Part shown: positions 3,930-58,642 of the stretch, one piece after another
How positions within the stretch are numbered: position 1 is the first letter of the stretch
Layout of the letters: each line of letters begins with the position of its first letter
Assembly: GCA_040388095.1 (NCBI GenBank)
Contig: JAZKCM010000001.1
Coordinates: 125,820 to 189,819, forward strand
Source of the DNA: Patescibacteria group bacterium
Lineage (GTDB): Bacteria; Patescibacteriota; Minisyncoccia; Phycocordibacterales; UBA9973
Direction of reading: 5' to 3'
Length of the DNA stretch: 64,000 nucleotides
Notes under the pieces: model-generated
Seen by the model: the letters and a program-made list of their open reading frames with translations, nothing else
Told to the model about the DNA's origin: nothing
The model's database searches: none
Made by a program: the position numbers and the translations under genes

Positions 3930-4622
3930 ATGACTAACGATCCAAAAATCCTAGGGCTCGCACTGTTAGGAGGAGTTCTTCCTGCGCTTATTTGGCTCTG
4001 GTTTTGGCTTCGTGAAAATGACGAAAAACCAGAGCCAAAAGGAACACTCATACTTTGTTTCTTACTTGGAATGATTGCAGTCATTATCGTCCTTCCTATT
4101 GAGAAATTTTTACAAACACACATAAATTCACAACAATTACAGATTGTTTCTTGGGCAAGTGTCGAGGAATTGGTAAAATATTTAGTAATTTTCATAGCGC
4201 TCTTCAACAGCACACAAATAAAAAGTCCTCTTGATTATGCTATTTATATTATTACCACAGCACTCGGCTTCGCTGCACTTGAAAATACATTTTTTCTCAT
4301 CAAGCCACTTTCACTCGACCACTCCACTGTCGGACTTCTGACAAGCCAGCTTCGCTTCCTTGGTTCTACACTACTTCACTCTGTTTCAAGTGGACTCATT
4401 GGTATTTCATTAGGTCTAGCTTTCTATATGGGACAATTTGCAAAGAAAATATATCTTTTTATTGGTATCATCGCAGCGATTGCCTTGCATACTGCCTTTA
4501 ATTTTTTTATAATAGAGAATAACGGAAACAATTTTTTAAGTGTCTTTGCATTGCTTTGGGTCGTCACCGTCATCAATATGCTTCTTTTGGAAAAATTAAG
4601 GAGAATGAGTGGTGAATATTAA
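3930..4622 (+). CDS. PrsW-family intramembrane protease-like membrane protein
   Basis: Polytopic membrane protein of 230 aa. Contains EELVK (EExxK-like) and ALHTAFNF (HxxxN) motifs in hydrophobic helices, as in the PrsW family. Confidence 0.5.
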   Translation: MTNDPKILGLALLGGVLPALIWLWFWLRENDEKPEPKGTLILCFLLGMIAVIIVLPIEKFLQTHINSQQLQIVSWASVEELVKYLVIFIALFNSTQIKSPLDYAIYIITTALGFAALENTFFLIKPLSLDHSTVGLLTSQLRFLGSTLLHSVSSGLIGISLGLAFYMGQFAKKIYLFIGIIAAIALHTAFNFFIIENNGNNFLSVFALLWVVTVINMLLLEKLRRMSGEY

Positions 4623-4649: not shown

Positions 4650-5108
4650 ATGAAAAAAAGATCATTTTTTGAAAGACTTACAGGAAGTGTCGATATGGAC
4701 GAATACACAGAAGAAACAAAAACTATCTCTGTGCAAGGAAATAAAAAAGAAAATCCTGCATGGATGGAAGAAGAGGAAGATGCAGAGCTCACTGTGGACG
4801 TCTACCAAACTCCAAATGACATCGTCGTACAGACAATGGTCGCTGGTGTGCGCCCTGAAGATCTTGAAATCACGATTACTCGAGATATGATTTCAATTCG
4901 TGGTAAGCGCGAAGAATCCCGCACAATCAATGAAGATAATTATTTCAGTAAAGAGCTTTACTGGGGATCATTCTCAAGAACTATTTCCCTTCCTGAAGAA
5001 GTCGATCCAGAAGAATCAGAAGCGACAGAAAAACACGGCTTGCTCACTATCAAGCTTCCAAAGATAGATAAAGAAAAGAAAAAGAACGTTAAAGTAAAAT
5101 CACTCTAG
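4650..5108 (+). CDS. Hsp20/alpha-crystallin small heat-shock protein
   Basis: Alpha-crystallin domain pattern: VDVYQTPNDIVVQTMVAGVRPEDLEITI...FSRTISLPEEVDPEESEATEKHGLLTIKLPK. Confidence 0.85.
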   Translation: MKKRSFFERLTGSVDMDEYTEETKTISVQGNKKENPAWMEEEEDAELTVDVYQTPNDIVVQTMVAGVRPEDLEITITRDMISIRGKREESRTINEDNYFSKELYWGSFSRTISLPEEVDPEESEATEKHGLLTIKLPKIDKEKKKNVKVKSL

Positions 5109-5113
5109 AAATT

Positions 5114-5138
5114 AAAAAACCGCTTATAGCGGTTTTTT
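5114..5138. terminator. Bidirectional intrinsic terminator (hsp20 / tRNA-Phe)
   Basis: Stem AACCGCT, loop TAT, stem AGCGGTT, flanked by an A-run upstream and a T-run downstream. Lies between convergent genes. Confidence 0.75.
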
Positions 5139-5146
5139 AATTAATG

Positions 5147-5219
5147 TGCCGAGGACCAGATTTGAACTGGTGACATCTCCCTCTTCAGGGGAGCGCTCTA
5201 CCAACTGAGCTACCTCGGC
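5147..5219 (-). tRNA. tRNA-Phe (anticodon GAA)
   Basis: The rc reads GCCGAGGTAGCTCAGTTGGTAGAGCGCTCCCCTGAAGAGGGAGATGTCACCAGTTCAAATCTGGTCCTCGGCA. The anticodon loop is CTGAAGA. Confidence 0.9.
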
Positions 5220-5904: not shown

Positions 5905-6309
5905 TTAAACAACCAAATCATCAAAATTTCCCTCGAATTTACTTGTTTTTACCAGAAGATTGTCTATCCAATGATAGTTCCCTCCTCTTGGTTTGTTGAA
6001 AATGATATTGTGATATTTGAAACCGTGTTCCTCGAGCCATTTCTTTGTTATGTCTCCGTGCTCTACGTCTCTGCGTGAAGTAAAAAATGTAATGATGTTC
6101 CCTGCATCGTACCATTCATTGATGCGCCTTTTTGCATTAGGCATTTCTTCCGCTGTCGCCATACGCTCTGGCTCTTCATTTGGAATGTCATCACAAATCG
6201 TACCATCTATATCGATAATTAGGTTCTGTATTTTTGAAGAAAGAAGCGGGCTTGCATGCCTGCCTTTCTCATCCAATGTGATTTGTAAATCAATTGTTGT
6301 TTCTATCAT
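5905..6309 (-). CDS. HAD-superfamily phosphatase-like protein
   Basis: Contains HAD motif I in IIDIDGTICDD (DxDGT). Small 134 aa single-domain protein. Confidence 0.55.
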   Translation of the reverse strand: MIETTIDLQITLDEKGRHASPLLSSKIQNLIIDIDGTICDDIPNEEPERMATAEEMPNAKRRINEWYDAGNIITFFTSRRDVEHGDITKKWLEEHGFKYHNIIFNKPRGGNYHWIDNLLVKTSKFEGNFDDLVV

Positions 6310-6354
6310 AAGTCTTATAGTAGCAAAATAAAAAATATTTTGGAAGTATTTTTT

Positions 6355-10340: not shown

Positions 10341-12083
10341 TTAATTCCTCTCACCCACTTGCTGACGCCACATTGCATTGTAGAGCCCTTTTTGATCAAG
10401 AAGTTCATTATGTGTTCCCTTTTCACTAACACTTCCTTTTTCCAATACATAGATACAGTCTGCATGCATTATAGTCGAGAGTCTATGTGCAATGAGAATC
10501 GTAATATGAGATTTGATTTCAGAAACATTCTTGATTGTCTTACCTATTTCTTCTTCGGTAAGAGAGTCGAGCGATGATGTTGCTTCATCAAAGACAAGAA
10601 TCTTTGGCTTGCGCAAAAGTGCACGAGCAATTGAGAGACGTTGTTTTTCTCCGCCAGAAACTTTCACTCCGCCTTCACCGATAACTGTATCTAAACCTTT
10701 ACCGCCACGCTCGAGCAGATTCTGACACTGTGCTTTGCCGAGTGCATCCAAACATTCTATATCAGTTGCATTTGGACTGACGAATAAAAGATTTTCGCGA
10801 ATAGTACCAGAGAAGAGCTGTGTATCCTGCGTGACGAATCCGATCTGCTTGCGCAATTCTTCTTTATTTATTTCATCATAGCGAACTCCATTGTAGAGAA
10901 TAGCCCCTTCTGTCGGCACATAGAGCCCGACGAGCAATTTCACCATTGAAGTTTTTCCTGATCCGGATGGACCAACAAAAGCAATGGTGTTCCCTCGTTT
11001 TATATTATATGAAATATTTGAGAGTGCCTGGGTCGTAGCTGATTGATACTGGAAAGAAAGATTTTTAAATTCGAGTTCTGTAACTTCACCGATCTCACGT
11101 GGATGTTCTGCGCTCGGTTCAGGAGGAGTCTCCATAAGCTTCTGATAGTTCGCAAGCGAAGCTTCAGTTTCACGATAGGCTGCGATAAATGGTGCGATTT
11201 GTTGGAGCGGAAAAAAGAGCCAGAAACTGTAAATGTTGAGAGAGAAGTATTGGCCGATAGTGATCGTACGGGTGTAGATAAGATACAAGAGAAAGAAAAC
11301 AAGTCCAGCGCGAATCGCATTGGTAATCGTACCTTGTACGAAATCAAGGCTACGGAGATAGCGAAGTTTTTTAAGCTCAAGTTTTAAAATTTTCTCTGTA
11401 GTTGTATTTAAGCGTTCCACTTCCTGCCCAGCAAGGCCAAGTGATTTTACAAGTTCAATGTTGCGAAGCGATTCAGTAGTGGAACCAGCGAGTGCTGTCG
11501 TTTCCGCTACGATTGTTTGCTGGATCTTCTTAATGCGTTTTGACATCAACACACTCACTATGCCAATGACAAAAATCATAGTAAAAAATACTATCGGAAT
11601 AAGCCAATAGATAGTACCCGAATAGATAGCAATAAAAACAAAAATGATAGAGGAAATAAAGATCGTGTTTACAATTTGAATCATCAGATTTTCCGTATCT
11701 TGACGAGCTTTTTGTAATTTACCAAGTGTTTCTCCTGAGCGTTCGTCTTCAAAGATACTGTATGGAAGCGAGAGCGAATGTCGTACTCCCTCTCGGTACA
11801 TATCTGCACCAGTATGCTTACTAATCGTATTCAAATAATAATCCTGAAAATTCTTGGCAACACGAGACACAAGTGCTGTGCCGATGAAAGCAAGGATGAG
11901 AAGCCCAACACCACGCAAAAAAGCCGACTCCGTGTAGTCAATAAAATGGCTCGCGTACTTGTCGATAAGCAATTGCGTGATATATGGCTCAAGCAGTGAG
12001 AAGAATTGATTAATGAGCGCCAATACGAGAACCAAAATACAAAGCTTCCAATATTTCTTAAGGTATATATATAATGTATTCAT
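10341..12083 (-). CDS. ABC transporter, fused permease/ATPase (MsbA-like exporter)
   Basis: Walker A GPSGSGKTS, signature VSGGEKQRLSIARAL, Walker B ILVFDEATSSLD, and an N-terminal 6-TM domain. Start set at ATG 12083 (MNTLYIYLKKYWKL). The ORF track extends to a TTG at 12110. Confidence 0.9.
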   Translation of the reverse strand: MNTLYIYLKKYWKLCILVLVLALINQFFSLLEPYITQLLIDKYASHFIDYTESAFLRGVGLLILAFIGTALVSRVAKNFQDYYLNTISKHTGADMYREGVRHSLSLPYSIFEDERSGETLGKLQKARQDTENLMIQIVNTIFISSIIFVFIAIYSGTIYWLIPIVFFTMIFVIGIVSVLMSKRIKKIQQTIVAETTALAGSTTESLRNIELVKSLGLAGQEVERLNTTTEKILKLELKKLRYLRSLDFVQGTITNAIRAGLVFFLLYLIYTRTITIGQYFSLNIYSFWLFFPLQQIAPFIAAYRETEASLANYQKLMETPPEPSAEHPREIGEVTELEFKNLSFQYQSATTQALSNISYNIKRGNTIAFVGPSGSGKTSMVKLLVGLYVPTEGAILYNGVRYDEINKEELRKQIGFVTQDTQLFSGTIRENLLFVSPNATDIECLDALGKAQCQNLLERGGKGLDTVIGEGGVKVSGGEKQRLSIARALLRKPKILVFDEATSSLDSLTEEEIGKTIKNVSEIKSHITILIAHRLSTIMHADCIYVLEKGSVSEKGTHNELLDQKGLYNAMWRQQVGERN

Positions 12084-29411: not shown

Positions 29412-30689
29412 TTAAGTATACCACTTTTTCAATTTGGTCAAAATTTCTTTCAAAGATTTTAAGGTAAAATCTATATCTTCTTTTTTCGTCATACGTCCGA
29501 GAGAAAAACGGATACTTCCAGTCTCTTGATTCGCTTCTGGTTTGATCGCTCGTATGACATATGACTCACCTTCTTCGCCTGATTTACACGCGCTCTTTGC
29601 GGAAACCATTATTCCTCGAGCCGAAAGCTCTATCACGAGTAAGTCACTAGGAATTTTTGGAATCGTGACATTGATATTGTTTGGCAATCTATTTTCCCTA
29701 TCACCATTAATAATAATTTCGCAAAACTGAGAATTTTTTATGGTCTGGCTGACTTCCCCCGAGGACCTAAAAATATTATCGGTTTTCGAAATTATTTCTC
29801 GAATAAAATAATCCTGTAATTTCTTTAATCTTTTAACTTCTTTTTCTTTAATCTTTTCTGTTATTTTCAAAGCTTCAGCAAATCCTGCAATACTCGCAAG
29901 ATTTTCTGTCCCTGCTCGCAAGCCACGCTCTTGATCTCCACCAAATATGATTTTAGATATTGGTGTTTTTCTTTTTATATACAAAATACCGATTCCTTTC
30001 GGGCCGTAAATTTTCCCTGCATTGAAAGACATCATATCGATTCCCAATTTCTCAACATTGATATCCAGATAATTTATCGCTTGCGTCGCATCAATATGAA
30101 AAAGTATTTTTGTATTATGTAATTTATTGTAATGACGAATCTCTTTTGCAATTTCACGAATTGGTTGAATCGTGCCAATCTCATTATTTGCATACATAAC
30201 AGAAACCAAAATAGTTTCCGGTCGCAATGCTTTTTTGATATTTTTCGGATCAACAATACCATTTTCTTCGACTGGAACATACGCCACTTCAGCTAATTTA
30301 TTTTTTTCAAGATATTTGCAAACTTCCAAAACAGAAGCATGTTCTATATTCGTAGTAACAATATGCGGAAGATTTTTTAATGGTCTGGTGACTTTCCCCG
30401 AGGACCTGAAAAAATCTTCCGCATATTTTTTAACTATCCCATTGATCGCCAAATTATTACTTTCAGTTGCTCCGCTTGTAAAAACAATTTCATCACTATG
30501 CGCATTTAAAACCTGAGCAATAGTTTTTCGATAAACTTCAATCATATTCTTACAATGTACACCGAGGTCGTGAATAGCACTTGGATTTGCAAATTCTCCC
30601 CTTAAAGCTTTACTCATAACAGAAAAAACGCTCTTTTCGAGAGGTGTCGCTGAAGCGTAATCCAAATATATTTTCTTTGATTTTTTCAT
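29412..30689 (-). CDS. Cysteine desulfurase (NifS/IscS-like, class V aminotransferase) with two short insertions
   Basis: Contains the PLP-lysine region SFNAGKIYGPKG, the HIVTTNIEHASV motif, and the active-site Cys region SAKSACKSGE. At 425 aa it is longer than typical at two loops, which coincide with a DNA repeat. Confidence 0.85.
   Translation of the reverse strand: MKKSKKIYLDYASATPLEKSVFSVMSKALRGEFANPSAIHDLGVHCKNMIEVYRKTIAQVLNAHSDEIVFTSGATESNNLAINGIVKKYAEDFFRSSGKVTRPLKNLPHIVTTNIEHASVLEVCKYLEKNKLAEVAYVPVEENGIVDPKNIKKALRPETILVSVMYANNEIGTIQPIREIAKEIRHYNKLHNTKILFHIDATQAINYLDINVEKLGIDMMSFNAGKIYGPKGIGILYIKRKTPISKIIFGGDQERGLRAGTENLASIAGFAEALKITEKIKEKEVKRLKKLQDYFIREIISKTDNIFRSSGEVSQTIKNSQFCEIIINGDRENRLPNNINVTIPKIPSDLLVIELSARGIMVSAKSACKSGEEGESYVIRAIKPEANQETGSIRFSLGRMTKKEDIDFTLKSLKEILTKLKKWYT
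29734..29773. repeat. ~40 bp intragenic repeat, copy 1 (inside the desulfurase gene)
   Basis: ttttttatggtctggctgacttcccccgaggacctaaaaa. Near-identical to 30373-30414. Encodes NIFRSSGEVSQTIKN. Confidence 0.8.
30373..30414. repeat. ~40 bp intragenic repeat, copy 2 (inside the desulfurase gene)
   Basis: ttttttaatggtctggtgactttccccgaggacctgaaaaaa. Encodes DFFRSSGKVTRPLKN. Confidence 0.8.
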
Positions 30690-33246: not shown

Positions 33247-33359
33247 GTTTGCACCCATAAACTTTTGGTAAATAATAGTAAAGTTTGCACCCATAAACTT
33301 TTGGTAAATAATAGTAAAGTTTGCACCCATAACTGTTTTGGTAAATAATAGTAAAGTTT
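33247..33359 (+). repeat. Tandem 36-37 bp repeat (3 full units) that copies the upstream region plus the first ~12 nt of tRNA-Lys
   Basis: Units start at 33247, 33283 and 33319: gtttgcacccataaacttttggtaaataatagtaaa, with the third unit showing ..aactgtttt... A fourth start at 33356 runs into the real tRNA-Lys (gcacccataactcagctgg). Confidence 0.9.
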
Positions 33360-33432
33360 GCACCCATAACTCAGCTGGTAGAGTAGCTCCCTCTTAAGGA
33401 GAATGTCGCAGGTTCGATCCCTGCTGGGTGCA
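33360..33432 (+). tRNA. tRNA-Lys (anticodon CUU)
   Basis: Acceptor GCACCCA/TGGGTGC, D arm ACTC-AGCTGGTA-GAGT, anticodon loop CTCTTAA, T arm GCAGG-TTCGATC-CCTGC. Confidence 0.9.
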
Positions 33433-33545
33433 CAAATTAAAAAGTTTACGGGGTAAAGTTTTTAATTTGTGCAAGGCGGAGGCACGACGGTGCCGAGCCG
33501 GGGTCGCGTAAAAATTCAGTAGAATTTTATATGTGACCACAATTG
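33433..33545 (+). ncRNA. Candidate structured RNA fused to the tRNA-Lys trailer (copy B of a 2-copy motif)
   Basis: Contains the blocks TTGTGCAAGGCGGAG, GAGCCGGGGTCGCG, AAAATT and TGACCACA, plus three hairpins (CACAAATTAAAAAGTTTAC/GTAAAGTTTTTAATTTGTG, GGCAC/GTGCC, AAAATTC/GAATTTT). Homologous to 546-690. Confidence 0.4.
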
Positions 33546-49454: not shown

Positions 49455-49538
49455 ACCTTTCTTCCCTATATCTTTCATATTTAGTATAATAAAGAGTATT
49501 AACAATATATATTAATATTAGTAAATAGAATTTATCAT

Positions 49539-51227
49539 ATGAATAAAAAATTGAGTGTAGGTGTTGTTTTAGGAACCTTAATCGTGCTTGGTGTACTTAT
49601 CGGAATTGTTTTCAATAGAAATTTAATTACTGATACAAACAACCAGCTTGCAAGTGTCATCGGTCCAACAATTACAAATATTAAGGTAAGTAACATTACT
49701 GCAACAGGAGCAATTGTTACTTGGACAACCAGTAAAGCTTCATCGACAAGCGTAGAAACTAAAGAAAATTTCTTGTCAGTCTGGGTAGTAGCTCCATATA
49801 ATGTTGGCAATATCAATGGTTTAACAACACACAAAGCTATCATTACTGATCTTAAATCAAATACAAAATATTCTTACCGTGTGACTTCTTGTGATAGTAC
49901 AAATAGCTGTAAAACTTCAAGCAGTAATTCATTTACAACAATCAAAGCTATCGATACTACAGCACCATCGACTCCTACAGATCTCGTAACAACAAATATT
50001 ACTGATACAACAGCGACTATTTCTTGGTCAGCATCGACAGACAATGTAGCAGTTGCAGGATACAATATATATAAAAATGGATCTACTATTGCGAGTAACA
50101 GTAGCCTCATCACAACAACAAGCTACCTCGCAACAGGACTCATAGCTGGTACTTCCCGTACATATGCAGTGAGTGCTGTTGATGCTACAGGAAATATGTC
50201 AGCACGAAGTACAGAATTTACATTTACAACAACAGGAGGAGTTTTAGCGACAGATACCTGTCCGAATGCAGTTACCAATCCTTCAGATGCGAGAGATGTC
50301 TGGGCATGGCATTCAAATACACAACTCGTAACACCAAACTCAACATATCAAAATCAATTCTTTGCTTTTGCTGATTCACATAAAGTGAAGACTATCTATC
50401 TCAATGCAAATCCATCTTTCCTATCTGGAAGTTCCGCAAACAATATAAAAGATTTCTTAAATAAAGCAAAGACACACTGTATGGATGTCGAAGCACTCGG
50501 TGGTGCTGAGAATTGGGTCGCAACTCCAGGTAATCCTTACTTTACTAAAGGGGTAACAACAACAGCTGCAGTTGATTTTGCTAATGCAGTCAAAAATTTC
50601 AACAATAGCATCGTCAGCCCAAATGCTAAATTCTCAGCAATACAACTCGATGTAGAGCCACACACAATCAGCTCCACTGATGGATATTATCCTTACTGGA
50701 ATATGGCTGATGCAACATATACAAAAGAACAATCAAACATAGCAATTGCAAATGCACTCATTGATATGCTTCACGAAGTCAGAGGTGTCGTTGGAACAAG
50801 TGTAAAAATAAATCTCGCTCCTCCACGCTGGTATGATACAAATGCTACTCTTCAATCATTCAATCGTACAGGTGCTGGCATCACAGGCAAAAATGCTATG
50901 CAATATATGTTTGATGAAGTAGATACAATCACTCTTCAGGATTATGTCACTACAGCAGACTCTATTTACACTTATGCAAAAGGTGAATTAGATTATGCAG
51001 TAGCAAATGGTAAAAAAGTAAAAATTGGTCTTCTCCTCGATCAAGATACAAGTGCTCCAACAAGTACATACTACGGCAGTACTTGTACAAAATTAAATAC
51101 TGATATTGCATCTTCATATGCAATGATGACTTCAGCACAAAAAGCAGTATTTGATGGATATGCTATCGAACAGTATGATACATCTGCTGGCTATCCAAGC
51201 TCATGGTCTAGTTTCTGTCCGCAATAA
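49539..51227 (+). CDS. Surface protein: N-terminal anchor + 2 FN3-like domains + ~330 aa Cys-bracketed C-terminal domain (paralog A)
   Basis: Anchor LSVGVVLGTLIVLGVLIGIV. FN3 signatures AIVTWTTSKASSTSVE and ATISWSASTDNVAVAGYNIY. The C-terminal domain runs from CPNAVTNPSDARDVWAWH to SSWSSFCPQ and contains AIQLDVEPH. It matches the C-terminus of 51350..55051. Confidence 0.75.
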   Translation: MNKKLSVGVVLGTLIVLGVLIGIVFNRNLITDTNNQLASVIGPTITNIKVSNITATGAIVTWTTSKASSTSVETKENFLSVWVVAPYNVGNINGLTTHKAIITDLKSNTKYSYRVTSCDSTNSCKTSSSNSFTTIKAIDTTAPSTPTDLVTTNITDTTATISWSASTDNVAVAGYNIYKNGSTIASNSSLITTTSYLATGLIAGTSRTYAVSAVDATGNMSARSTEFTFTTTGGVLATDTCPNAVTNPSDARDVWAWHSNTQLVTPNSTYQNQFFAFADSHKVKTIYLNANPSFLSGSSANNIKDFLNKAKTHCMDVEALGGAENWVATPGNPYFTKGVTTTAAVDFANAVKNFNNSIVSPNAKFSAIQLDVEPHTISSTDGYYPYWNMADATYTKEQSNIAIANALIDMLHEVRGVVGTSVKINLAPPRWYDTNATLQSFNRTGAGITGKNAMQYMFDEVDTITLQDYVTTADSIYTYAKGELDYAVANGKKVKIGLLLDQDTSAPTSTYYGSTCTKLNTDIASSYAMMTSAQKAVFDGYAIEQYDTSAGYPSSWSSFCPQ

Positions 51228-51232
51228 GCTAC

Positions 51233-51270
51233 AAAAAAAGCCTCGCAACCTTTGGTTGCGAGGCTTTTTT
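51233..51270 (+). terminator. Intrinsic terminator
   Basis: AAAGCCTCGCAACC-TTTG-GTTGCGAGGCTTTTTT. Confidence 0.85.
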
Positions 51271-51349
51271 ATTTCACCTTTATTTCCCTTGCAGTAAAAT
51301 ATTTAGTATTATATAAGTATTAATAATATTATAAACTAGAATATTTTGT

Positions 51350-54300
51350 ATGAATAAAAATTTAAGACTTGGCGTTGTATTAGGGAGTTTAATTTCGCTC
51401 GTCGTACTCGGTGTTATCGTTTCTAATAAAAATTTAGGTAATACAAGTAGCCAGCTCGCAAGCCTCGTTGGTCCAACAATTACAAATGTCAAAGTAAGTA
51501 ACATCAGTACAACCAAAGTAAGTATTGATTGGAAAACTGACGTACCAAGCACCACAAAAATAGAAATCAAAAAAGCTTGGACGGTAAGTTGGGTCATTCC
51601 TTCAGGTAGTGGAACTAGCACAAATCTCACCACTGATCATACTGTTGATATCGACAACCTTATTTCGAATACAAAATATTCTTACCGTGTGACTTCTTGT
51701 GAAGACACCATCGGTTGTAAAACATGGACATCAAGCACACGATTCACAACACTCAAAACAACTGGCACTGACCCTACTGATACAGAAAATCCAACAATAC
51801 CGACAAATCTTAATGTCTCAAATATTACACAAACAAGTGCTACAATTTCTTGGACAGCAAGTACAGATGATGTCGCAGTCTCAGGATATAATATCTATAA
51901 AAAAGACACATCTGGCGTTGTTACTAAAAGTAATACTTCCCTAATCACAGGAACGACTTATAATGCAACTGGTTTAACTCCTGGTATTACAAGAAGTTAT
52001 CAAGTGGAAGCAGTAGATACGTCAGGTAAACTTTCTGGATTAAGTAATGCTGTTGTTTTTGCAACAACAGGTGGTGTGACTAGTGACACCACCTCCCCAA
52101 CCTCTCCTACAGGACTTTCTTCTTCAAATATTACACAAACAAGTGCCACAATTTCTTGGACTGCAAGTACTGATAATATTGGAGTTACTGGATACGATGT
52201 GTATGTTGGTGGAATTTTAAAGACTAGTGTTACAAGTACTACTGCTTCTCTTACAGGGCTTACTGCTGGTACTACATATAGTGTTACAGTGAAAGCTAAA
52301 GATGCTGCGGGAAACCCTCCTACTGCGAGTACTGCTCTGTCTTTAACAACCCTATCTTCAATAATAATTCCTCCTGCTGATATGCAAGCGCCAAGCATAC
52401 CAACTTTAACTCTTATTTCAAAAACAGATGTAAGTGCAGCAATACAATGGACAGCAAGTACTGATAATGTCGCTGTTGCTGGTTATCATGTTTATAACAA
52501 TGGAGTTGAAATAGGTAATACATCTACTGCAACTTCAATCACAGCTAATGGCCTTAGTCCTGCAACCACATATAATTTCACTGTAAAAGCTTTTGATACA
52601 GCGACACCAGCAAACTTATCTACAGCAAGTAATATTCTTACTATAACTACAGATGCTTTACATGATGTTACGCCTCCAACAGCTCCAAGCAATTTAACTT
52701 CTTCAAATCTAACTCCACATTCAGTAGATATTGCTTGGACAGCAAGTACAGATAATGTCGGAGTTATCGAATATCAAGTTTATGTAAATGGAACACTTGT
52801 AGGTGGTACAACTTTAGCTACTTCTATACATGCTTCAACTCTTTTCGAAAATACAACATATACTTTTACAATCAGTTCAAAAGACGCAGCAAACAATTAC
52901 TCTCTACTAAGTACTCCTTTAACGATAACAACACCACAAGACAATCCATCTGCACCGACAAATCTAATCCTAATTTCTAAAACCCATAACTCAGCAGCAA
53001 TGCAATGGACTGTTCCCGTAGTAACAGGAGGATTATCACCTATCGCTTCTTATGAAATTTATGTAAACGGTACATTAATAGGATCAACACTTTCTGCAAC
53101 TTCAATCACAGCTAATGGCCTTAGTCCTGCGACCACCTATGTATTCACAGTAAAAGCAAAAAATAGTTTAGGTCATCTTTCATCTTCAAGTAACTCTCTT
53201 TCTGTTACAACAGATACAGCACCCGATACTCAAGCACCAACTGCTCCTACAGGACTCAATGCTCCAGCCACAGAGATTACGACAAATTCTCTCAATCTCT
53301 ATTGGACAGCAAGTACTGACAACGTTGGAGTAGTAGAATATCAAGTATTCAAAAATGGAGTTCTTATTACCGGAACAGTAACAGCAACATCAGTACCAAT
53401 CACCAGCCTTACTCCTGCGACCACATACACATTCACAATCAAAGCAAAAGACGCTGCGGGGAATCTCTCTCCTCTTAGTACTGCCCTTTCAGTGACAACA
53501 AAAACTCCAGCCGACACCACCTCCCCATCAACACCTACAGGACTTACAACTTCAAACATTACACAAACAAGTGCAACAGTTTCTTGGACAGCAAGTACTG
53601 ATAATATTGGAGTTACTGGATACGATGTGTATGTTGGTGGAATTTTAAAGACTAGTGTTACAAGTACTACTGCTTCTCTTACAGGGCTTACTGCTGGTAC
53701 TACATATAGTGTTACAGTGAAAGCTAAAGATCTTGCGGGGAATGTTTCAGTGGCAAGTAATGTTTTGTCTGTGGTGACAGTTAGTGCTGACACAACAGCA
53801 CCGACTATTTCTGCAATTAGTTCAATACCAAATGATACTGGTGTGACGATAACTTGGACGACGAACGAAGCATCTGATTCACAAATCAGTTATGGTTTAA
53901 CGAGCTCCTACGGTACAACAAGTGTCCTCAATACAAGTCTCGTTACATCACATTCTGTCACTGTCACAGGACTCACTTCAGGAACACTCTATCACTATAA
54001 AGTTACTTCAAAAGACGCTTCATTAAATAGTGCTTCATCTGCCGACCAAACATTTACCACGACAACTCCTGCCCCAGTGTGTTTGAATGCAATTACGAAT
54101 CCTGCAGATGGCCGAGATGTCTGGGCATGGCATGGTAACACAGTCCTCATAACACCAAATTCTACTTACCAAAATAATTTCTTTACCTATGCTGATTCAC
54201 ATAAAATACAGACAATATATCTTAATGCAAACGCATCTTTTGTTAATAACAATGCAACAAATATCAAAGACTTCTTAAACAAAGCAAAAACACATTGTAT

Positions 54301-55051
54301 GAGTGTCGAAGCTTTAGGCGGTGCTGAAAATTGGGTAGCACTTCCAGGTAATCCATACTTCACTCAAGGCGCGACAACGACAGCAGCATTGGATTTTGCT
54401 ACAGCAGTAAAAAATTTAAACAATAGTATCACAGGAAATAATGCAAAATTCTCAGCGATACAGTACGATGTGGAGCCTCACACAATCGGTTCGACAGACG
54501 GTTATTATCCATATTATGGATTAAGTGATGCAAACTATACACCATTACAAGCAAACACAGCCATACTAAATGCATTGATAGATATGACTCAAGCAGTAAA
54601 AGCAATCACTGGATCAAGCGTGAAAGTAAATCTTGCTCCACCACGATGGTATGACACTTCAGCTAACCTCAACCCTTTCTCTCGTACAGGAGTTGGAGTG
54701 ACAGGTAAAAATGCAATGGAATATTTATTTGATAATGTTGATATTCTTTCGATTCAGGATTATGTAAATACTGCTAGCAATATTCATGACGATGCAGTCG
54801 GTGAATTAAATTATGCTGCAGCTCATAATAAAAAAGTAAATATTGGAATCCTACTTGATAACAGTGCCCCAGCTTCATCAAACTTCTTTGGTAGTACCTG
54901 TGCAAACCTTAACTCAACACTCCAAGGAGCGTACAACCTGATGACCGCAACAGAGAAAAGTGGCTTTGGTGTATTCTCTATAGAACAATACGATACAGGA
55001 GCTGGTTATACTGCTGGTACACCGAGTTCTTGGACTGGTATGTGCCCATAA
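51350..55051 (+). CDS. Giant surface protein: N-terminal anchor + ~9 FN3-like domains + the same C-terminal domain (paralog B)
   Basis: The W-T-A-S-T-D-N-(V/I)-G/A-V-x-G/E-Y signature recurs about 7 times, plus 2 divergent FN3 domains (VSIDWKTD, VTITWTTNEASDSQISYG). The C-terminal domain runs from VCLNAITNPADGRDVWAWH to SSWTGMCP and contains AIQYDVEPH. Confidence 0.8.
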   Translation: MNKNLRLGVVLGSLISLVVLGVIVSNKNLGNTSSQLASLVGPTITNVKVSNISTTKVSIDWKTDVPSTTKIEIKKAWTVSWVIPSGSGTSTNLTTDHTVDIDNLISNTKYSYRVTSCEDTIGCKTWTSSTRFTTLKTTGTDPTDTENPTIPTNLNVSNITQTSATISWTASTDDVAVSGYNIYKKDTSGVVTKSNTSLITGTTYNATGLTPGITRSYQVEAVDTSGKLSGLSNAVVFATTGGVTSDTTSPTSPTGLSSSNITQTSATISWTASTDNIGVTGYDVYVGGILKTSVTSTTASLTGLTAGTTYSVTVKAKDAAGNPPTASTALSLTTLSSIIIPPADMQAPSIPTLTLISKTDVSAAIQWTASTDNVAVAGYHVYNNGVEIGNTSTATSITANGLSPATTYNFTVKAFDTATPANLSTASNILTITTDALHDVTPPTAPSNLTSSNLTPHSVDIAWTASTDNVGVIEYQVYVNGTLVGGTTLATSIHASTLFENTTYTFTISSKDAANNYSLLSTPLTITTPQDNPSAPTNLILISKTHNSAAMQWTVPVVTGGLSPIASYEIYVNGTLIGSTLSATSITANGLSPATTYVFTVKAKNSLGHLSSSSNSLSVTTDTAPDTQAPTAPTGLNAPATEITTNSLNLYWTASTDNVGVVEYQVFKNGVLITGTVTATSVPITSLTPATTYTFTIKAKDAAGNLSPLSTALSVTTKTPADTTSPSTPTGLTTSNITQTSATVSWTASTDNIGVTGYDVYVGGILKTSVTSTTASLTGLTAGTTYSVTVKAKDLAGNVSVASNVLSVVTVSADTTAPTISAISSIPNDTGVTITWTTNEASDSQISYGLTSSYGTTSVLNTSLVTSHSVTVTGLTSGTLYHYKVTSKDASLNSASSADQTFTTTTPAPVCLNAITNPADGRDVWAWHGNTVLITPNSTYQNNFFTYADSHKIQTIYLNANASFVNNNATNIKDFLNKAKTHCMSVEALGGAENWVALPGNPYFTQGATTTAALDFATAVKNLNNSITGNNAKFSAIQYDVEPHTIGSTDGYYPYYGLSDANYTPLQANTAILNALIDMTQAVKAITGSSVKVNLAPPRWYDTSANLNPFSRTGVGVTGKNAMEYLFDNVDILSIQDYVNTASNIHDDAVGELNYAAAHNKKVNIGILLDNSAPASSNFFGSTCANLNSTLQGAYNLMTATEKSGFGVFSIEQYDTGAGYTAGTPSSWTGMCP

Positions 55052-55065
55052 AAATTATTAATAAA

Positions 55066-55103
55066 AATAAAAAGCCGATTCGCATTTTGCGAATCGGCTT
55101 TTT
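55066..55103. terminator. Bidirectional intrinsic terminator
   Basis: AAGCCGATTCGC-ATTTT-GCGAATCGGCTT flanked by an A-run and a T-run. Confidence 0.85.
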
Positions 55104-55119
55104 TAATTAGCTTTTCTGA

Positions 55120-55779
55120 TTAATGATCTTTATCTAGTTGTTCACGTTCATTAACAATTACTCCTTCGAGGATAATATGTTCAGGTTTTGAAGGCTGTGG
55201 AGGTGCTCCATCGAATACAAGATAAACACTTCTGTATTTAACATTAATCAAACAAGTTTTGTTGTCGTATTTCAAAGCAACTTCTCCTGCTTTATTTTCT
55301 TTACCCGTTAAAAAAAGATAATACTTACCATCTACTGGTTTATATTTAAAAGGTAATAATGCAGTAAAACTTTTTTTTGTGAAACGAACATTCAAAGTAG
55401 AAAGATCTTTACTATAACTCTCCACAACACCTGGCGTAAGATTATTAAGATCGGCTATTTGGCTATCTCTTTTTTTACCATACACAAGTACACCATCTGT
55501 AATTTTTTTTACATTTGTATCCTCATAAAGAACCAAAACAGCAGGACCGGCATTATAAAATTGGAAAATTTTTGTTTCTTCTCCAGTTATATTAAATGTA
55601 TCTCTAATTGCTGTTGTCCAAGGAATTTTTGCAGATTTTTGCTGTGTTTCATTATTGTAACCCGTACTTTCTTTTGAGCTTTTGCATGACCCAAGTGACA
55701 ATATAGCTAAAAAAATAATAGCTCTACAAACTTTTTTCTGTATTTTTGGATCCAAAGATTCCAAATCATTATTTTCCAT
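55120..55779 (-). CDS. Hypothetical lipoprotein-like protein (219 aa)
   Basis: Signal with a lipobox-like sequence ILSLGSC, followed by a beta-rich-looking domain. Confidence 0.6.
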   Translation of the reverse strand: MENNDLESLDPKIQKKVCRAIIFLAILSLGSCKSSKESTGYNNETQQKSAKIPWTTAIRDTFNITGEETKIFQFYNAGPAVLVLYEDTNVKKITDGVLVYGKKRDSQIADLNNLTPGVVESYSKDLSTLNVRFTKKSFTALLPFKYKPVDGKYYLFLTGKENKAGEVALKYDNKTCLINVKYRSVYLVFDGAPPQPSKPEHIILEGVIVNEREQLDKDH

Positions 55780-55843
55780 TTGTTTTATATTTAAGGTTTA
55801 TATTTCAAAGATATTTATTCCCTATTATCTTAGCATAAATGAT

Positions 55844-55872
55844 TTGACAAGTCAAGCTAATTTTGGTAATAT
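55844..55872 (+). promoter_or_regulatory. Consensus-like promoter (TTGACA-N17-TAATAT)
   Basis: TTGACA at 55844-55849, a 17 nt spacer, and TAATAT at 55867-55872. It drives a transcript of ~280 nt ending at the 56127-56157 terminator. Confidence 0.55.
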
Positions 55873-55939
55873 TTAAATAGGATTTGTTCATCAAATTTCG
55901 ATAATAAATAATAAATTTAATCTTTAAAAATCTAATTTT

Positions 55940-56053
55940 ATGGCTAAAAGAAGCATTTCTAAATTACCAGTCGGTAATCCATTTCCAAGTATTATATTTG
56001 GTAAAAATGTTCCCGGAATAACTGAACAAAAAAATCAAAAACTATCAAGCTAA
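55940..56053 (+). CDS. Candidate small ORF (37 aa): MAKRSISKLPVGNPFPSIIFGKNVPGITEQKNQKLSS
   Basis: The only ATG-initiated ORF in the promoter-to-terminator unit. Below the ORF-track cutoff. Coding status is uncertain and the unit could be an sRNA. Confidence 0.25.
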   Translation: MAKRSISKLPVGNPFPSIIFGKNVPGITEQKNQKLSS

Positions 56054-56126
56054 AAACGATTTTTACAAAACACCTTTAATCAAAAAACTAAAAAGCCACG
56101 TCAAGAAATAACGGTTAAATTACAAA

Positions 56127-56157
56127 CAAAAAAACTCTGCAATTGCAGAGTTTTTTT
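56127..56157. terminator. Bidirectional intrinsic terminator
   Basis: A-run, CTCTGC-AATT-GCAGAG, T-run. Confidence 0.8.
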
Positions 56158-56172
56158 AATTTAAAAAGAAAA

Positions 56173-56298
56173 TTATTTCTTTTTCTTTTTTGCAGCTTTT
56201 TTATCAAGCATGACTTTCTTAACAGCCAATCGCTTTTTAGTTTTCTTTGAATGCCTTGATGGTTTCTTCGGGCTCAATGTTGTACTTCTTTTTGCCAT
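56173..56298 (-). CDS. Candidate small, very basic protein (41 aa): MAKRSTTLSPKKPSRHSKKTKKRLAVKKVMLDKKAAKKKKK
   Basis: Own translation. Has its own consensus promoter (TTGAAT-N17-TATAAT) and the shared terminator. Composition is ribosomal-protein-like, but I cannot assign a family. Confidence 0.45.
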   Translation of the reverse strand: MAKRSTTLSPKKPSRHSKKTKKRLAVKKVMLDKKAAKKKKK

Positions 56299-56332
56299 AT
56301 AAATTTATTTTAATTATTGATAAGATAGTTTT

Positions 56333-56361
56333 ATTATACTTGATAAATACAAAAAATTCAA
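56333..56361 (-). promoter_or_regulatory. Consensus promoter on the minus strand (TTGAAT-N17-TATAAT)
   Basis: The rc of 56356-56361 is TTGAAT and the rc of 56333-56338 is TATAAT, with a 17 nt spacer. Confidence 0.55.
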
Positions 56362-56396
56362 ATGCTATCATCCTTAGAATTTGATAAAATCACTAT

Positions 56397-56648
56397 ATGA
56401 TTAAAAAAGTGATTTCTCACGGCATAACACACAAAACACCAGCTGATTTACAGAAAGCTCTTATTTCTGCTCCGAGAGCTCTAGCGATATGGGAAAACAT
56501 TACTCCCCTAGCCCGCAATGAATGGATATGTTGGGTAATATCTGGCAAGAAAATAGAAACGAGGGTTATACGCATTAAAAAAGGAATATCGAAATTAAGT
56601 GGCGGAATGCGCCGCCCTTGTTGCTGGGCTGGATGTATTCATAGATAG
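56397..56648 (+). CDS. YdeI/OmpD-associated (OmdA) domain protein
   Basis: PADLQKALISAPRALAIWENITPLARNEWICWVISGKKIETRVIRIKKGISKL matches the YdeI/OmdA C-terminal domain pattern as I remember it. Confidence 0.65.
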   Translation: MIKKVISHGITHKTPADLQKALISAPRALAIWENITPLARNEWICWVISGKKIETRVIRIKKGISKLSGGMRRPCCWAGCIHR

Positions 56649-56692
56649 AATATGGTAAAATTATAAGTAATTATAATTAACTAAATGATTCT

Positions 56693-58642
56693 ATGAAGCA
56701 AAAATATTTTATTTATTTTCTCGCACCTATAGTATTTTTAGGTTTTATTCAAATAGTAAATTCGCAAACAATCGATAGCCAAAAGCTCGATCCTAATCCT
56801 CCAGTAATTACAAACATAAGTGTCACGCCTTTCTCATCTACTTCTGTAATAATCACATGGACTACAGACGAATTAAGTAATTCAAAAGTTTTATATGGTA
56901 AAGGCCGAACCAGCAAAAACGAAATTGATCAAAATGATGTAATTTCGCATTCTATTAAATTAGAAAATTTAGATATTGCTACTGAATATGTTTTTTGCGT
57001 CGAATCACGTGATAAGGTACAAAACATAGGGCAAAGTTGCGACCACACTTTTACTACGAGCACTCCTATTCCAGCTGACACAACTGCACCAATAATTACT
57101 GATGTAATCGCAGAAGATATTTCAACTTCAACAGCCACTATTTCTTGGGTGACAAATGAAATAGCTACAGGCCAAGTAGAATATGGGCTCACATCAACAT
57201 ATGGATTACAAAGTCCATATGATCAGACCCTCAACTTGAATCACTCAATAAGACTAACCGATCTTACAGAAGATACAACTTACCATATACAAGTAGAATC
57301 CAAAGATAATTCTAATAACTCATCAAAATCTCAAGATATTACTTTCAAAACACTTAAGAATGAAATTGTGATTCCGCCTTCCACTGCTCTTCCTATCATC
57401 ACAAATATAACTTCACACAATCAAACATCTTCAAGTGTTTCAATATCGTGGACAACAAACAAAATAACTGATGGCCAGATCGAATACGGAATAAATACAG
57501 ACTACGGAACAACAACAAACTTAGATAGTGATCTTATAAAACATCATACACAAATAATCACTGGACTTGAAGCAAATACTGCCTACTATGCACGAATACA
57601 TTCACACGATAACGAAGGTAATGAAGCCATATCCGAAGACTTTATTTTTCAAACGACGAACGGTACGACCATCACACCTCCAGATGAAAATCCACCACCT
57701 GTCGAAGAACCTGGTGATGGTTCTGATAATGGTTCTGGTGGAGGTGATACCAATACACCTAGAGATGAAAATCCGGCAGATGCAACTACACCAATAAATA
57801 ACACAGAAGGTGTATTTAAAAATGGTTCTGGTACTATACAAATCAATCAAGTATCGGGTGTTACTGCATATGGACTCAATCACACAATTCTTATACTTTG
57901 GAACAAAGCAAATGAAGCTGATCGTACTGGAATTAAAATTGTCCGTAGTAAAGAAGATTATCCAACAAATCCAAACGATGGTGACCTATTGTATCAAGGC
58001 AACGGTATGATATTTAGTGACGTAAACCTAACCAACAATAAGACGTATTATTATTCAGTCTTCGCATATAAAGAAAACTCAATTTATTCAGAACCAGTCC
58101 AGCTCTCTATCGCCCCTGTTGAAGACCCATCAAAATATACTTCAGTTCAAATTGATAATGGAAAAATACAAATACTTACGACTCGTGACTTTGGTCTCGG
58201 TACACGAGGATTTGTCGTTAATTATCTACAGAACCTTCTAGCTTCTGACCCTACCCTATATCCTGAGGGATTGGTAACTGGATATTTTGGACCATTAACA
58301 AAATCTGCAATCATAAGATTCCAAAAAAGACACGGGATACCAGAAACAGGGATAGTCGATGCAAATGTCCGAGCTATCACACGCGACTTAACTGTCCCAC
58401 AAAACGTCAAACCTGAATTATCACCTCGTAGCAATATGTCACTTGGTTCAACAGGTGACAATGTAAAAGTTTTACAGACTGCATTAGTTCAACTTGATTA
58501 TTTAGATGAAACTTTTATTGATGGAAATTTTGGAATAGAAACACAACAAGCTGTACTCAAATTCCAAAAAGATAACAATCTTGTAGTAGACGGAATAGTA
58601 GGACCAGTCACTCGAGCAAAAGCAATCTTGAAAGTGCACTAA
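56693..58642 (+). CDS. Secreted protein: 3-4 FN3-like domains + Pro/Gly/Asp linker + two peptidoglycan-binding (PG_binding_1-like) repeats
   Basis: Signal peptide. FN3 signatures VIITWTTDELSNSKVLYG, ATISWVTNEIATGQVEYG and VSISWTTNKITDGQIEYG. C-terminal repeats GYFGPLTKSAIIRFQKRHGIPETGIVD and GNFGIETQQAVLKFQKDNNLVVDGIVGPVT. Confidence 0.75.
   Translation: MKQKYFIYFLAPIVFLGFIQIVNSQTIDSQKLDPNPPVITNISVTPFSSTSVIITWTTDELSNSKVLYGKGRTSKNEIDQNDVISHSIKLENLDIATEYVFCVESRDKVQNIGQSCDHTFTTSTPIPADTTAPIITDVIAEDISTSTATISWVTNEIATGQVEYGLTSTYGLQSPYDQTLNLNHSIRLTDLTEDTTYHIQVESKDNSNNSSKSQDITFKTLKNEIVIPPSTALPIITNITSHNQTSSSVSISWTTNKITDGQIEYGINTDYGTTTNLDSDLIKHHTQIITGLEANTAYYARIHSHDNEGNEAISEDFIFQTTNGTTITPPDENPPPVEEPGDGSDNGSGGGDTNTPRDENPADATTPINNTEGVFKNGSGTIQINQVSGVTAYGLNHTILILWNKANEADRTGIKIVRSKEDYPTNPNDGDLLYQGNGMIFSDVNLTNNKTYYYSVFAYKENSIYSEPVQLSIAPVEDPSKYTSVQIDNGKIQILTTRDFGLGTRGFVVNYLQNLLASDPTLYPEGLVTGYFGPLTKSAIIRFQKRHGIPETGIVDANVRAITRDLTVPQNVKPELSPRSNMSLGSTGDNVKVLQTALVQLDYLDETFIDGNFGIETQQAVLKFQKDNNLVVDGIVGPVTRAKAILKVH

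Follow-up and report, generated by a model that had tools for sequence, protein, structure and literature searches.

Rickettsia palindromic elements (RPEs) are short palindromes dispersed through a reduced, A+T-rich genome, where they lie in frame in conserved genes at positions that correspond to loops and are translated into peptide that is not itself selected. Template switching has been proposed for the correction of quasi-palindromes. One source states that RPE copies decay over time, cites the translational-bypass 'byp' elements of Magnusiomyces, and describes palindromes in the mitochondrial coding sequence of Nematomorpha, for which its authors propose template switching or repeat conversion (PMC6649704). 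Repetitive extragenic palindromes (REPs) are tagged by GTAG/CGTC (PMC3733652), REPINs are non-autonomous elements that exploit REP-associated tyrosine transposases (RAYTs; PMC3337134), and the G+C-rich palindromic clusters of yeast mitochondria form a dynamic mobile DNA family (PMC4478555). The locus considered here is a cysteine desulfurase gene in a 64,000-nt stretch of Patescibacteria DNA (contig JAZKCM010000001.1, positions 125,820 to 189,819), referred to below as the window, and it carries two near-identical direct repeats of about 40 nt. We consider it likely that both repeats are copies of a dispersed, non-autonomous, selfish hairpin element of REP/RPE-like character that is common in the Paceibacteria/Nomurabacteria group. 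Comparison across genomes shows that the hairpin repeat is dispersed, occupies protein loops without breaking the frame, and is subject to turnover among relatives. Literature searches brought up no account of elements of this kind from Patescibacteria.

The host gene and the two repeats, all on the minus strand, are as follows.

29412..30689, minus strand: cysteine desulfurase, class I (IscS/NifS-type), 425 aa, open reading frame (ORF) intact; supported by ORF, Pfam and PDB matches
29734-29773, minus strand: copy 1, reading TTTTTAGGTCCTCGGGGGAAGTCAGCCAGACCATAAAAAA on the gene strand
30373-30414, minus strand: copy 2, reading TTTTTTCAGGTCCTCGGGGAAAGTCACCAGACCATTAAAAAA on the gene strand

The family PF00266 (Aminotran_5) is assigned in precomputed Pfam data to P0001, a protein identical to the window desulfurase. 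PDB matches cover residues 4-421 (9wep, E 6e-80; E. coli IscS 1p3w, E 7e-72), and His117, Lys226 and Cys368, invariant columns of the homolog alignment, are retained. The gene order IF-2 / DUF4446 / desulfurase / ClpB is common to the window and the orthologous loci.

An earlier interpretation made from the letters of the window (the sequence-only reading) had described the two copies as near-identical repeats encoding NIFRSSGEVSQTIKN and DFFRSSGKVTRPLKN, and both the sequences and the peptides were verified. Of the 43 columns in a global alignment of copy 1 with copy 2, 38 match, four contain gaps and one is a mismatch, and the 12-mer CCCCGAGGACCT is found in both (2 occurrences against 0.04 expected). 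The same reading had noted compensating single-nucleotide indels, and the alignment bears this out: the copies differ by one additional G in GTCAGCC and one additional T in CCATTA, such that the four codons between them are in shifted frames. The stretch concerned is accordingly V-S-Q-T-I in one copy and V-T-R-P-L in the other.

The repeats belong to a family that extends well beyond the window. A pattern scan over one genome per species listed at least 113 stretches; the pattern was too loose for G+C-rich genomes, and 75 of 118 matches were chance ones in such genomes (actinobacteria and similar). The 25-27-nt core was found at least 41 times, in 21 assemblies of A+T-rich Patescibacteria that carry the labels Paceibacteria, Nomurabacteria, Parcubacteria, Minisyncoccia or 'Saccharibacteria'. 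The last label is doubtful for some third-party bins, whose DnaK is ~92% identical to that of a Paceibacteria bin. Several copies can be present per genome (at least six in MDV bin93 and at least five in H43-bin168_1). A search for further genomic copies had been proposed as a check on the original observation, and it thus returned many that lie in genes and in frame. A profile hidden Markov model (HMM) built from 42 copies of other genomes, with the window left out, matches the window at E 8.5e-14 (copy 2) and 4.2e-11 (copy 1); this profile found no further match in the 64 kb beyond the two desulfurase copies.

Approximately 25 of 44 copies are located inside ORFs of 269-902 codons. Ten hosts were confirmed with Pfam (PolA, LigA, PheT, Tgt, UvrC, RecJ, MnmA, UvrA, TrmD and UvrD), while the remaining in-gene hosts were assigned by eye and comprise a methyltransferase, further PolA, PheT, UvrC and MnmA genes, and a desulfurase with another copy, at a third loop. 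The host frame stays open through every in-gene copy, and copies that no ORF spans sit between separate genes. Translations of the core include RSSGKVTRP, GSSGKVTRP, GPRGKSPDQ and RVLGRGSARP, with WSGDLTRGP from the antisense strand. The orthologous locus L001 uses another frame at the same desulfurase site (CAA GGT CCT CGG GGT, giving QGPRGG within QGPRGGVNQT), as does L002 (QGPWKG within QGPWKGVSQT). The core is thus read in three frames and in antisense, which places its conservation at the DNA level and not at the peptide level. This agrees with the earlier proposal of a frame-keeping insertion element resembling RPEs, now extended to unrelated genes. A virus or phage origin was also considered and set aside, with no match to the element in viral contigs.

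The cores of the two window copies differ from one another, and each has an identical counterpart in another genome.

30382..30406, minus strand: core of copy 2, GGTCCTCGGGGAAAGTCACCAGACC, 25 nt, hairpin apex; identical to the core of L080 (pheT, another genome)
29742..29767, minus strand: core of copy 1, GGTCCTCGGGGGAAGTCAGCCAGACC, 26 nt, a different sub-variant from copy 2; identical to the core of L040 (tgt, another genome)

Since these are different sub-variants, each identical to an outside copy, the two window copies appear to be of independent origin, and a recent duplication of one into the other is ruled out by the same identities.

Alignment of the protein and the DNA with short orthologs defines the sequence that each copy adds to the gene.

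30372..30422, minus strand: sequence added by copy 2, 51 nt, 17 codons, ~A90-N106
29721..29777, minus strand: sequence added by copy 1, 57 nt, 19 codons, ~N305-C323
Example of a peptide spanning an insert junction: FFRSSGKVTRPLK

The boundaries of the copy 2 insert are ambiguous by a few bases within A runs. The closest orthologs (72-80% identical, 389-396 aa) do not have the 17 and 19 residues, and the solved desulfurases 9wep and 1p3w, which align over the whole protein, show gaps at both sites. In an AlphaFold model of the window desulfurase built on 28 homologs, residues 99-103 at the copy 2 site have a predicted local distance difference test score (pLDDT) below 50, within a coil (97-108) between helix 76-96 and strand 109-113. 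At the copy 1 site the residues with pLDDT below 50 are 309-322, which belong to the coil linking helix 264-304 to strand 326. Judging from the alignments and the model, both inserts are predicted loop extensions in an otherwise normal IscS/NifS-type desulfurase, as the sequence-only reading had anticipated, with sizes now placed at 17 and 19 aa. The insert peptides would presumably be translated as unstructured extensions of these lengths, with no selection acting on the peptide.

It could be argued that the inserts are instead lineage-specific extensions of protein loops, duplicated within the gene or selected as peptides, with the likeness in DNA due to ancestry or gene conversion. Both copies are indeed in one gene, many Patescibacteria desulfurases have inserts at the same four loop positions, and some homologs (P0091, P0039) share site and frame. 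We nevertheless regard this explanation as scarcely credible. Frame-shifting indels separate the copies and orthologs L001 and L002 employ other frames, the same DNA occurs in at least 10 unrelated proteins, and the two window cores are sub-variants of other genomes. Furthermore, most of the changes that distinguish L202 from the window are non-synonymous, and both peptides fall in low-confidence coil. The pattern of the same peptide encoded by different DNA, named earlier as the observation that would overturn an insertion element, was not seen: the sole same-site, same-frame ortholog (P0091/L202) has a decayed copy of the same core.

The extent of the element was underestimated at first. It had been described as a unit of ~40 nt; each window copy is in fact the tip of a longer palindrome, the whole element being a hairpin of 68-90 nt.

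30357..30430, minus strand: palindrome of copy 2, arms 30357-30378 and 30409-30430; 22-nt arms, 95% complementary, found by inverted-repeat search
~29712..29796, minus strand: palindrome of copy 1, imperfect 29/30-nt arms, found by arm alignment

The 84-nt RNA fold of copy 2 reaches -31.9 kcal/mol (z -6.9; z -5.6 for another copy 2 fold) and the 91-nt fold of copy 1 reaches -23 kcal/mol (z -3.7). Of the two copy 2 arms, 30357-30378 lies closer to the 3' end of the gene and specifies the ancestral K-N-L-P-H-I-V, including the alignment-invariant H109. The opposite arm (30409-30430) encodes K-K-Y-A-E-D-F-F and holds GCGGAAG, the exact inverted complement of the CTTCCGC that specifies Leu-Pro-(His). 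The origin of the copy 2 arms was judged against the short ortholog L005 and P0019-type sequences.

The same architecture is found throughout the family. An apex of 25-27 nt, with the consensus GGTCCTCGG-N5/6-GTCA(G)CCAGACC, is nearly invariant. It is enclosed by inner arms, short and A/T-rich, that come mainly in two forms (TTTTCA...ATGAAAA and TTTTCTCG...AGCTCGAAAA). Beyond these, the outer arms are unique to each locus, with a median arm of 21/22 nt. The mean arm alignment score is 14.4, compared with 1.0 +/- 1.4 at 920 random control positions. Conserved terminal inverted repeats were not found beyond the inner 8-10 nt shared among copies. A T-N-C motif is clearly present on both sides of the palindrome in 13 of 44 copies, where 0.15 would be expected (p ~3e-22), or in 18 with four approximate cases taken in. 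The flanking T-N-C is the same on both sides in eight of the 13 and different in five, is missing from most in-gene copies, and often has 2-5 further complementary bases outside it. Orthologous copies can have different yet internally complementary arms, as seen for the window and L202 and for L020 and L116. With respect to host or neighbouring genes, 30 cores are co-oriented and six opposite (p = 7e-5). The window desulfurase is on the strand favoured by GC skew; the gene strand and the GC-skew strand therefore coincide in the window, and the directions of transcription and replication are inseparable here.

Three further ideas were tried and dropped. In the loci examined, outer-arm 15-mers matched only orthologs, the subfamily and low-complexity noise, which does not fit arms that are guide- or spacer-like copies of distant targets. 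The element-free sites of L004 and L005 are not palindromic around the junction, which speaks against insertion into the centre of existing palindromes. Finally, T-N-C-flanked palindromes and copies with one ancestral arm could not be reconciled under a single insertion rule; A runs and the self-complementarity of AAAATTTT leave the junctions ambiguous.

Several of these properties could also be expected if the hairpin were a functional RNA or single-stranded DNA module, its apex bound by a conserved host protein acting in mRNA stability, processing, translation pausing or replication, with the stem free in sequence and set in length and with spread being secondary. The apex is almost invariant except at five loop positions, whereas the stem sequences vary; stem lengths group around 21/22 nt; and a T-N-C/T-N-C internal loop or flank stands at a fixed distance from the apex in the 13-18 copies mentioned above. 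The bias towards the sense strand of transcription, the many intergenic copies that exactly fill the spacer between two co-directional genes, and the arm complementarity kept between orthologs can be read in the same way. However, no common context links the unrelated genes and positions in which the copies occur, the element is absent, replaced or half deleted in close relatives without obvious consequence, and the core decays in P0091. The strand bias is explained equally well by strand-specific insertion into single-stranded DNA, given that genes are co-oriented with GC skew. With Rfam 15, tRNAs alone match at the gathering threshold, and at E up to 10 the only matches are to generic plant miRNA hairpin models. 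A functional module is thus considered an unlikely explanation. A resemblance of the variant core GGTCCTCGGAAGGGGGTCAGCC to the GGAA tetraloop region of helix 8 of signal recognition particle (SRP) RNA was also dismissed, as none of the SRP models gave a match with E values up to 10 allowed.

Comparison of close relatives reveals turnover of the element, in the form of presence/absence differences, a replacement and remnants of partial deletion. L001 and L004 are 90.6% identical over 5.1 kb, and besides a 13-nt tandem unit the sole large indel is a 54-nt element, consisting of the core and an inverted copy of its own left flank. Orthologs devoid of the inserts, which had been suggested as a check, are therefore at hand in L004 and in the 72-80% identical desulfurases. 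The 13-nt unit, TTTTTGTTCATTA, is present as one extra tandem copy in L001 (~1856) relative to L004 and L005, at or near the junction of the L001 IF-2 (368-1879) and DUF4446 (1892-2350) genes. In L051 (~5040-5160) and L057 (~6250-6350), flanks that are 98-99.5% identical enclose the same intergenic spacer with different elements and arms and with opposite core orientation, which indicates a very recent replacement. In two PolA orthologs (78% identical) the element occupies one and the same position but in opposite orientations. At desulfurase site 1, P0002 has kept the right half of copy 2 alone (ACAAGACTTTTAAAAAATTTTCCACAT vs ACCAGACCATTAAAAAATCTTCCGCAT; TRLLKNFPH vs TRPLKNLPH in the window, 22 of 27 nt identical). 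The decayed core of P0091/L202 occupies the same site and frame as in the window, and five of six changed codons are non-synonymous; the P0091 arms differ from the window arms yet still pair with each other. A metagenome scan for desulfurase orthologs returned mostly distant homologs (37-60% identity), with extra copies in L125, L129 and L132 and no new close filled/empty pairs among the matches listed.

With regard to the source of the core, the sequence-only reading had drawn attention to words shared with the window tRNA-Phe gene and had hinted at a tRNA-derived origin. The shared 9-mer and 8-mer are indeed there: the gene (5146-5219) holds GTCACCAG and GGTCCTCGG, both within the core. Such an origin, with the core being a permuted fragment of T-arm and acceptor comparable to tRNA-derived retroposons or to integrase target sites at tRNA 3' ends, would provide a universal source sequence and thereby account for strong core conservation. 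The combination of a 9-mer and a separate 8-mer in one tRNA was met in 1.6% of trials (11 shuffled tRNAs), a value (p ~0.016) that is post hoc, applies to a single tRNA-Phe, and suggests the origin weakly. In addition, a single 9-mer match is expected in 23% of shuffles, the blocks are in permuted order and cover 17 of 25 nt, and no tRNA-like fold is predicted for the core. Derivation from tRNA-Phe hence seems very improbable.

A candidate for mobilisation is provided by RAYT-like genes in the same group of bacteria.

L080 3797-4571: RAYT-like Y1 transposase gene
L203 2449-3223: RAYT-like Y1 transposase gene
L213 2394-3267: RAYT-like Y1 transposase gene (222-225 aa across the three)

The L080 gene, a Y1_Tnp / REP-associated tyrosine transposase-like gene, is located 370 nt from the L080 copy of the element. 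It scores above the cut-off for PF01797 (26.7 bits against 23, E 6.7e-6) and below it for the NCBIfam model REP_Tyr_transpos (30.3 bits against 80, E 3.2e-7). More than 1,490 genes annotated in Nomurabacteria, Parcubacteria and Paceibacterota are homologous to it at ~70% identity, and each RAYT-like gene examined has one genomic context, as in domesticated RAYTs. The elements might therefore be classical REPs or REPINs moved by a RAYT-like Y1 transposase, with in-gene copies being accidental. The hairpin shape, the strand bias and the T-N-C flank (reverse complement GTAG in the TAC cases) fit the single-stranded-DNA chemistry of Y1/HUH enzymes, and many element arms begin GCAA...TTGC, resembling the foot of the palindrome that flanks the RAYT genes. 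That palindrome is a different one, however: the genes of L080, L203 and L213 are flanked by GCAAGRACNGTYCTTGC, which was found only beside RAYT genes and not dispersed in the other Patescibacteria loci examined or in the window. Moreover, no RAYT gene was seen flanked by the hairpin core, the 64-kb window has no RAYT-like gene, half of the copies fall within genes, and the length of an element is 2-3 times that of a REP. As the RAYT-flanking palindrome differs and is not dispersed, the RAYT link stays at the level of hypothesis, and we consider classical REPs or REPINs a possible, albeit doubtful, description of the family.

The RAYT-like genes themselves are flanked on both sides by their own perfect palindrome, GCAAG(A/G)AC-N-GT(T/C)CTTGC. 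In L080 one palindrome of this type is in frame inside the transposase gene, where it encodes EKAQGQSLRQN. No autonomous insertion sequence with matching ends was found in the window or in the ~640 kb of loci examined.

The desulfurases contain other inserts of comparable kind. Homologs have inserts at four loop positions, with motifs that recur between sites and proteins (FSRVLGLDPDQLENF, CALPRVRVGTLGD, HTY..CSARQPAQ, NRGPEKN and KRSDLKN). At least four of the recurrent insert families found in the P0015-P0111 homologs (CALPRVRVGTLGD, HTY..CSARQPAQ, NRGPEKN and KRSDLKN) are distinct from the present one, and some motifs are reused within one protein. L120 (10001-11419) carries two other families of the same build, with a different G+C-rich apex between long arms (down to -59.9 kcal/mol); at site 1 of L120 the arms are 25 bp and perfect, one of them being the ancestral GVVRKFLEI. 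With four hot spots of insertion and no fewer than four separate repeat families in desulfurases, the phenomenon looks widespread.

Further repeats and neighbouring genes were also observed. In the window, three tandem 36-37-nt units of TTTTGGTAAATAATAGTAAAGTTTGCACCCATAAC occupy 33263-33372 and overlap the tRNA-Lys gene (33360-33433). Each unit ends in the first 11 nt of this tRNA-Lys(CTT) gene, GCACCCATAAC, such that the tRNA 5' end and its upstream region are triplicated before the intact gene. An inverted repeat of 15 bp, perfect in its arms (TTTGGCTCTGGTTTT ... AAAACCAGAGCCAAA, separated by 19 nt and lacking the conserved core), is present at 3991-4039, where this coding palindrome encodes LWLWFWLRENDEKPEPK in the gene of a 230-aa predicted membrane protein (3930-4622). 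The region ~49500-57200 contains one or more genes of repeated modules, with 108-nt units ~290-306 nt apart and 160-300-nt blocks duplicated ~3.8 kb apart at 70-90% identity, which suggests a very large repetitive surface protein. At L002, LAGLIDADG homing-endonuclease-domain ORFs (1190-1840 and 11228-12046) are located near the desulfurase/ClpB region.

Returning to the interpretation of the two repeats as copies of a dispersed selfish hairpin element, we propose that the cysteine desulfurase gene received two sub-variants independently, one in each of two permissive surface loops. In-gene copies would persist only where the loop tolerates the insert and where length and frame keep the ORF open. 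The locus-specific arms may be produced by copying one flank into the other, at insertion or later, through intrastrand template switching or snap-back synthesis, with the coding-constrained side presumably acting as donor. Insertion might favour sites ending in T-N-C beside A/T runs; one site of this type would be TTCCGC, the (L/F)-P-H codons of site 1, possibly making the desulfurase gene a hot spot. The RAYT-like Y1 transposase conserved in the group is a candidate for the mobilising activity. More tentatively still, the family may represent a new class of mobile hairpin, in which a 25-nt apex is kept constant across the group by a conserved trans-acting enzyme (possibly the RAYT-like Y1 transposase) and a ~21-nt stem is rewritten at each locus from the target flank by snap-back or target-primed synthesis. 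A perfect hairpin would thus be built from host coding sequence, recurrently in loops of essential replication, repair and tRNA-modification proteins; we offer this as a speculative extension that is rather less probable than the selfish element itself.

A number of observations weigh against the selfish-element interpretation. The 25-nt core is identical across hosts whose orthologous proteins share only ~50-60% identity; conservation of the core beyond that of a neutral selfish repeat points to frequent horizontal spread or to constraint by a conserved trans-acting factor or function. The same arms are found at non-orthologous loci (L008, L033/L027, L014, L051), indicating that arms are not always made locally and can travel with the core. 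Only two copies are present in 64 kb, both within one gene, which is unexpected under random insertion and calls for a hot spot or strong filtering. No transposase is tied to the core, the palindrome beside the RAYT genes being a different one, and translation of the inserts is deduced from open ORFs alone. Finally, the short orthologs may be deletion derivatives and not empty sites, in which case the 'insertion' between L001 and L004 could be a deletion in L004, and desulfurase site 1 would be a hot spot of gain, decay and loss.

Should the selfish-element interpretation be correct, at least one class of the extra segments in proteins of Patescibacteria (the candidate phyla radiation) would be translated selfish DNA, and segments of this kind should be handled as neutral insertions into loops in alignments, structure predictions and inferences of lineage-specific function. 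If the speculative rewriting of the stem from the target flank is true, it would constitute a novel mode of repeat propagation and a major source of unexplained insertions in proteins of these bacteria. It would also provide a natural system for template-switch palindrome formation, and possibly for Y1-transposase activity, in bacteria that are not culturable alone. The core could serve as a compact marker for the bacterial group, with presence/absence polymorphisms usable in strain typing.

Comparison with the described systems places the element between several of them. Like RPEs it is dispersed and palindromic, in frame in loops, conserved at the DNA level, and decays in individual copies. 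However, RPEs are ~100-150 nt long with a conserved full-length consensus, whereas the Patescibacteria element is 68-90 nt long and consists of a conserved apex with locus-specific arms. The likeness to RPEs is thus one of working alike, and membership is unlikely given the different phylum and length. With REPs and REPINs the element has in common a hairpin repeat, a short conserved flanking tag, a strand bias and a single-context RAYT-like gene in the same bacterial group. In contrast to REPs, which are extragenic, 20-40 nt long and flank RAYT genes with their cognate sequence, half of the Patescibacteria copies are intragenic, their length is 68-90 nt and their tag is T-N-C.

[quoted passage not shown] While MITEs have conserved terminal inverted repeats, a fixed target-site duplication and a related DDE insertion sequence, the outer arms described here are unconserved and no parent insertion sequence was seen. 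The yeast mitochondrial clusters and byps are likewise G+C-rich hairpin repeats that invade A+T-rich, compact genomes including their coding regions. They are organellar, however, and the ribosome skips byps, whereas the frame stays open in all in-gene Patescibacteria copies, and hence no bypass is needed. The Nematomorpha palindromes also are long inverted repeats in functional coding sequence, with arms that remain complementary despite change and with gain and loss between relatives. Those palindromes have no conserved mobile core, and both of their arms encode conserved protein, in contrast to the constant apex of the Patescibacteria element and its one arm encoding a dispensable loop. It is the combination of a conserved apex with flank-derived stems that sets the element apart from both RPEs and REPs/REPINs.

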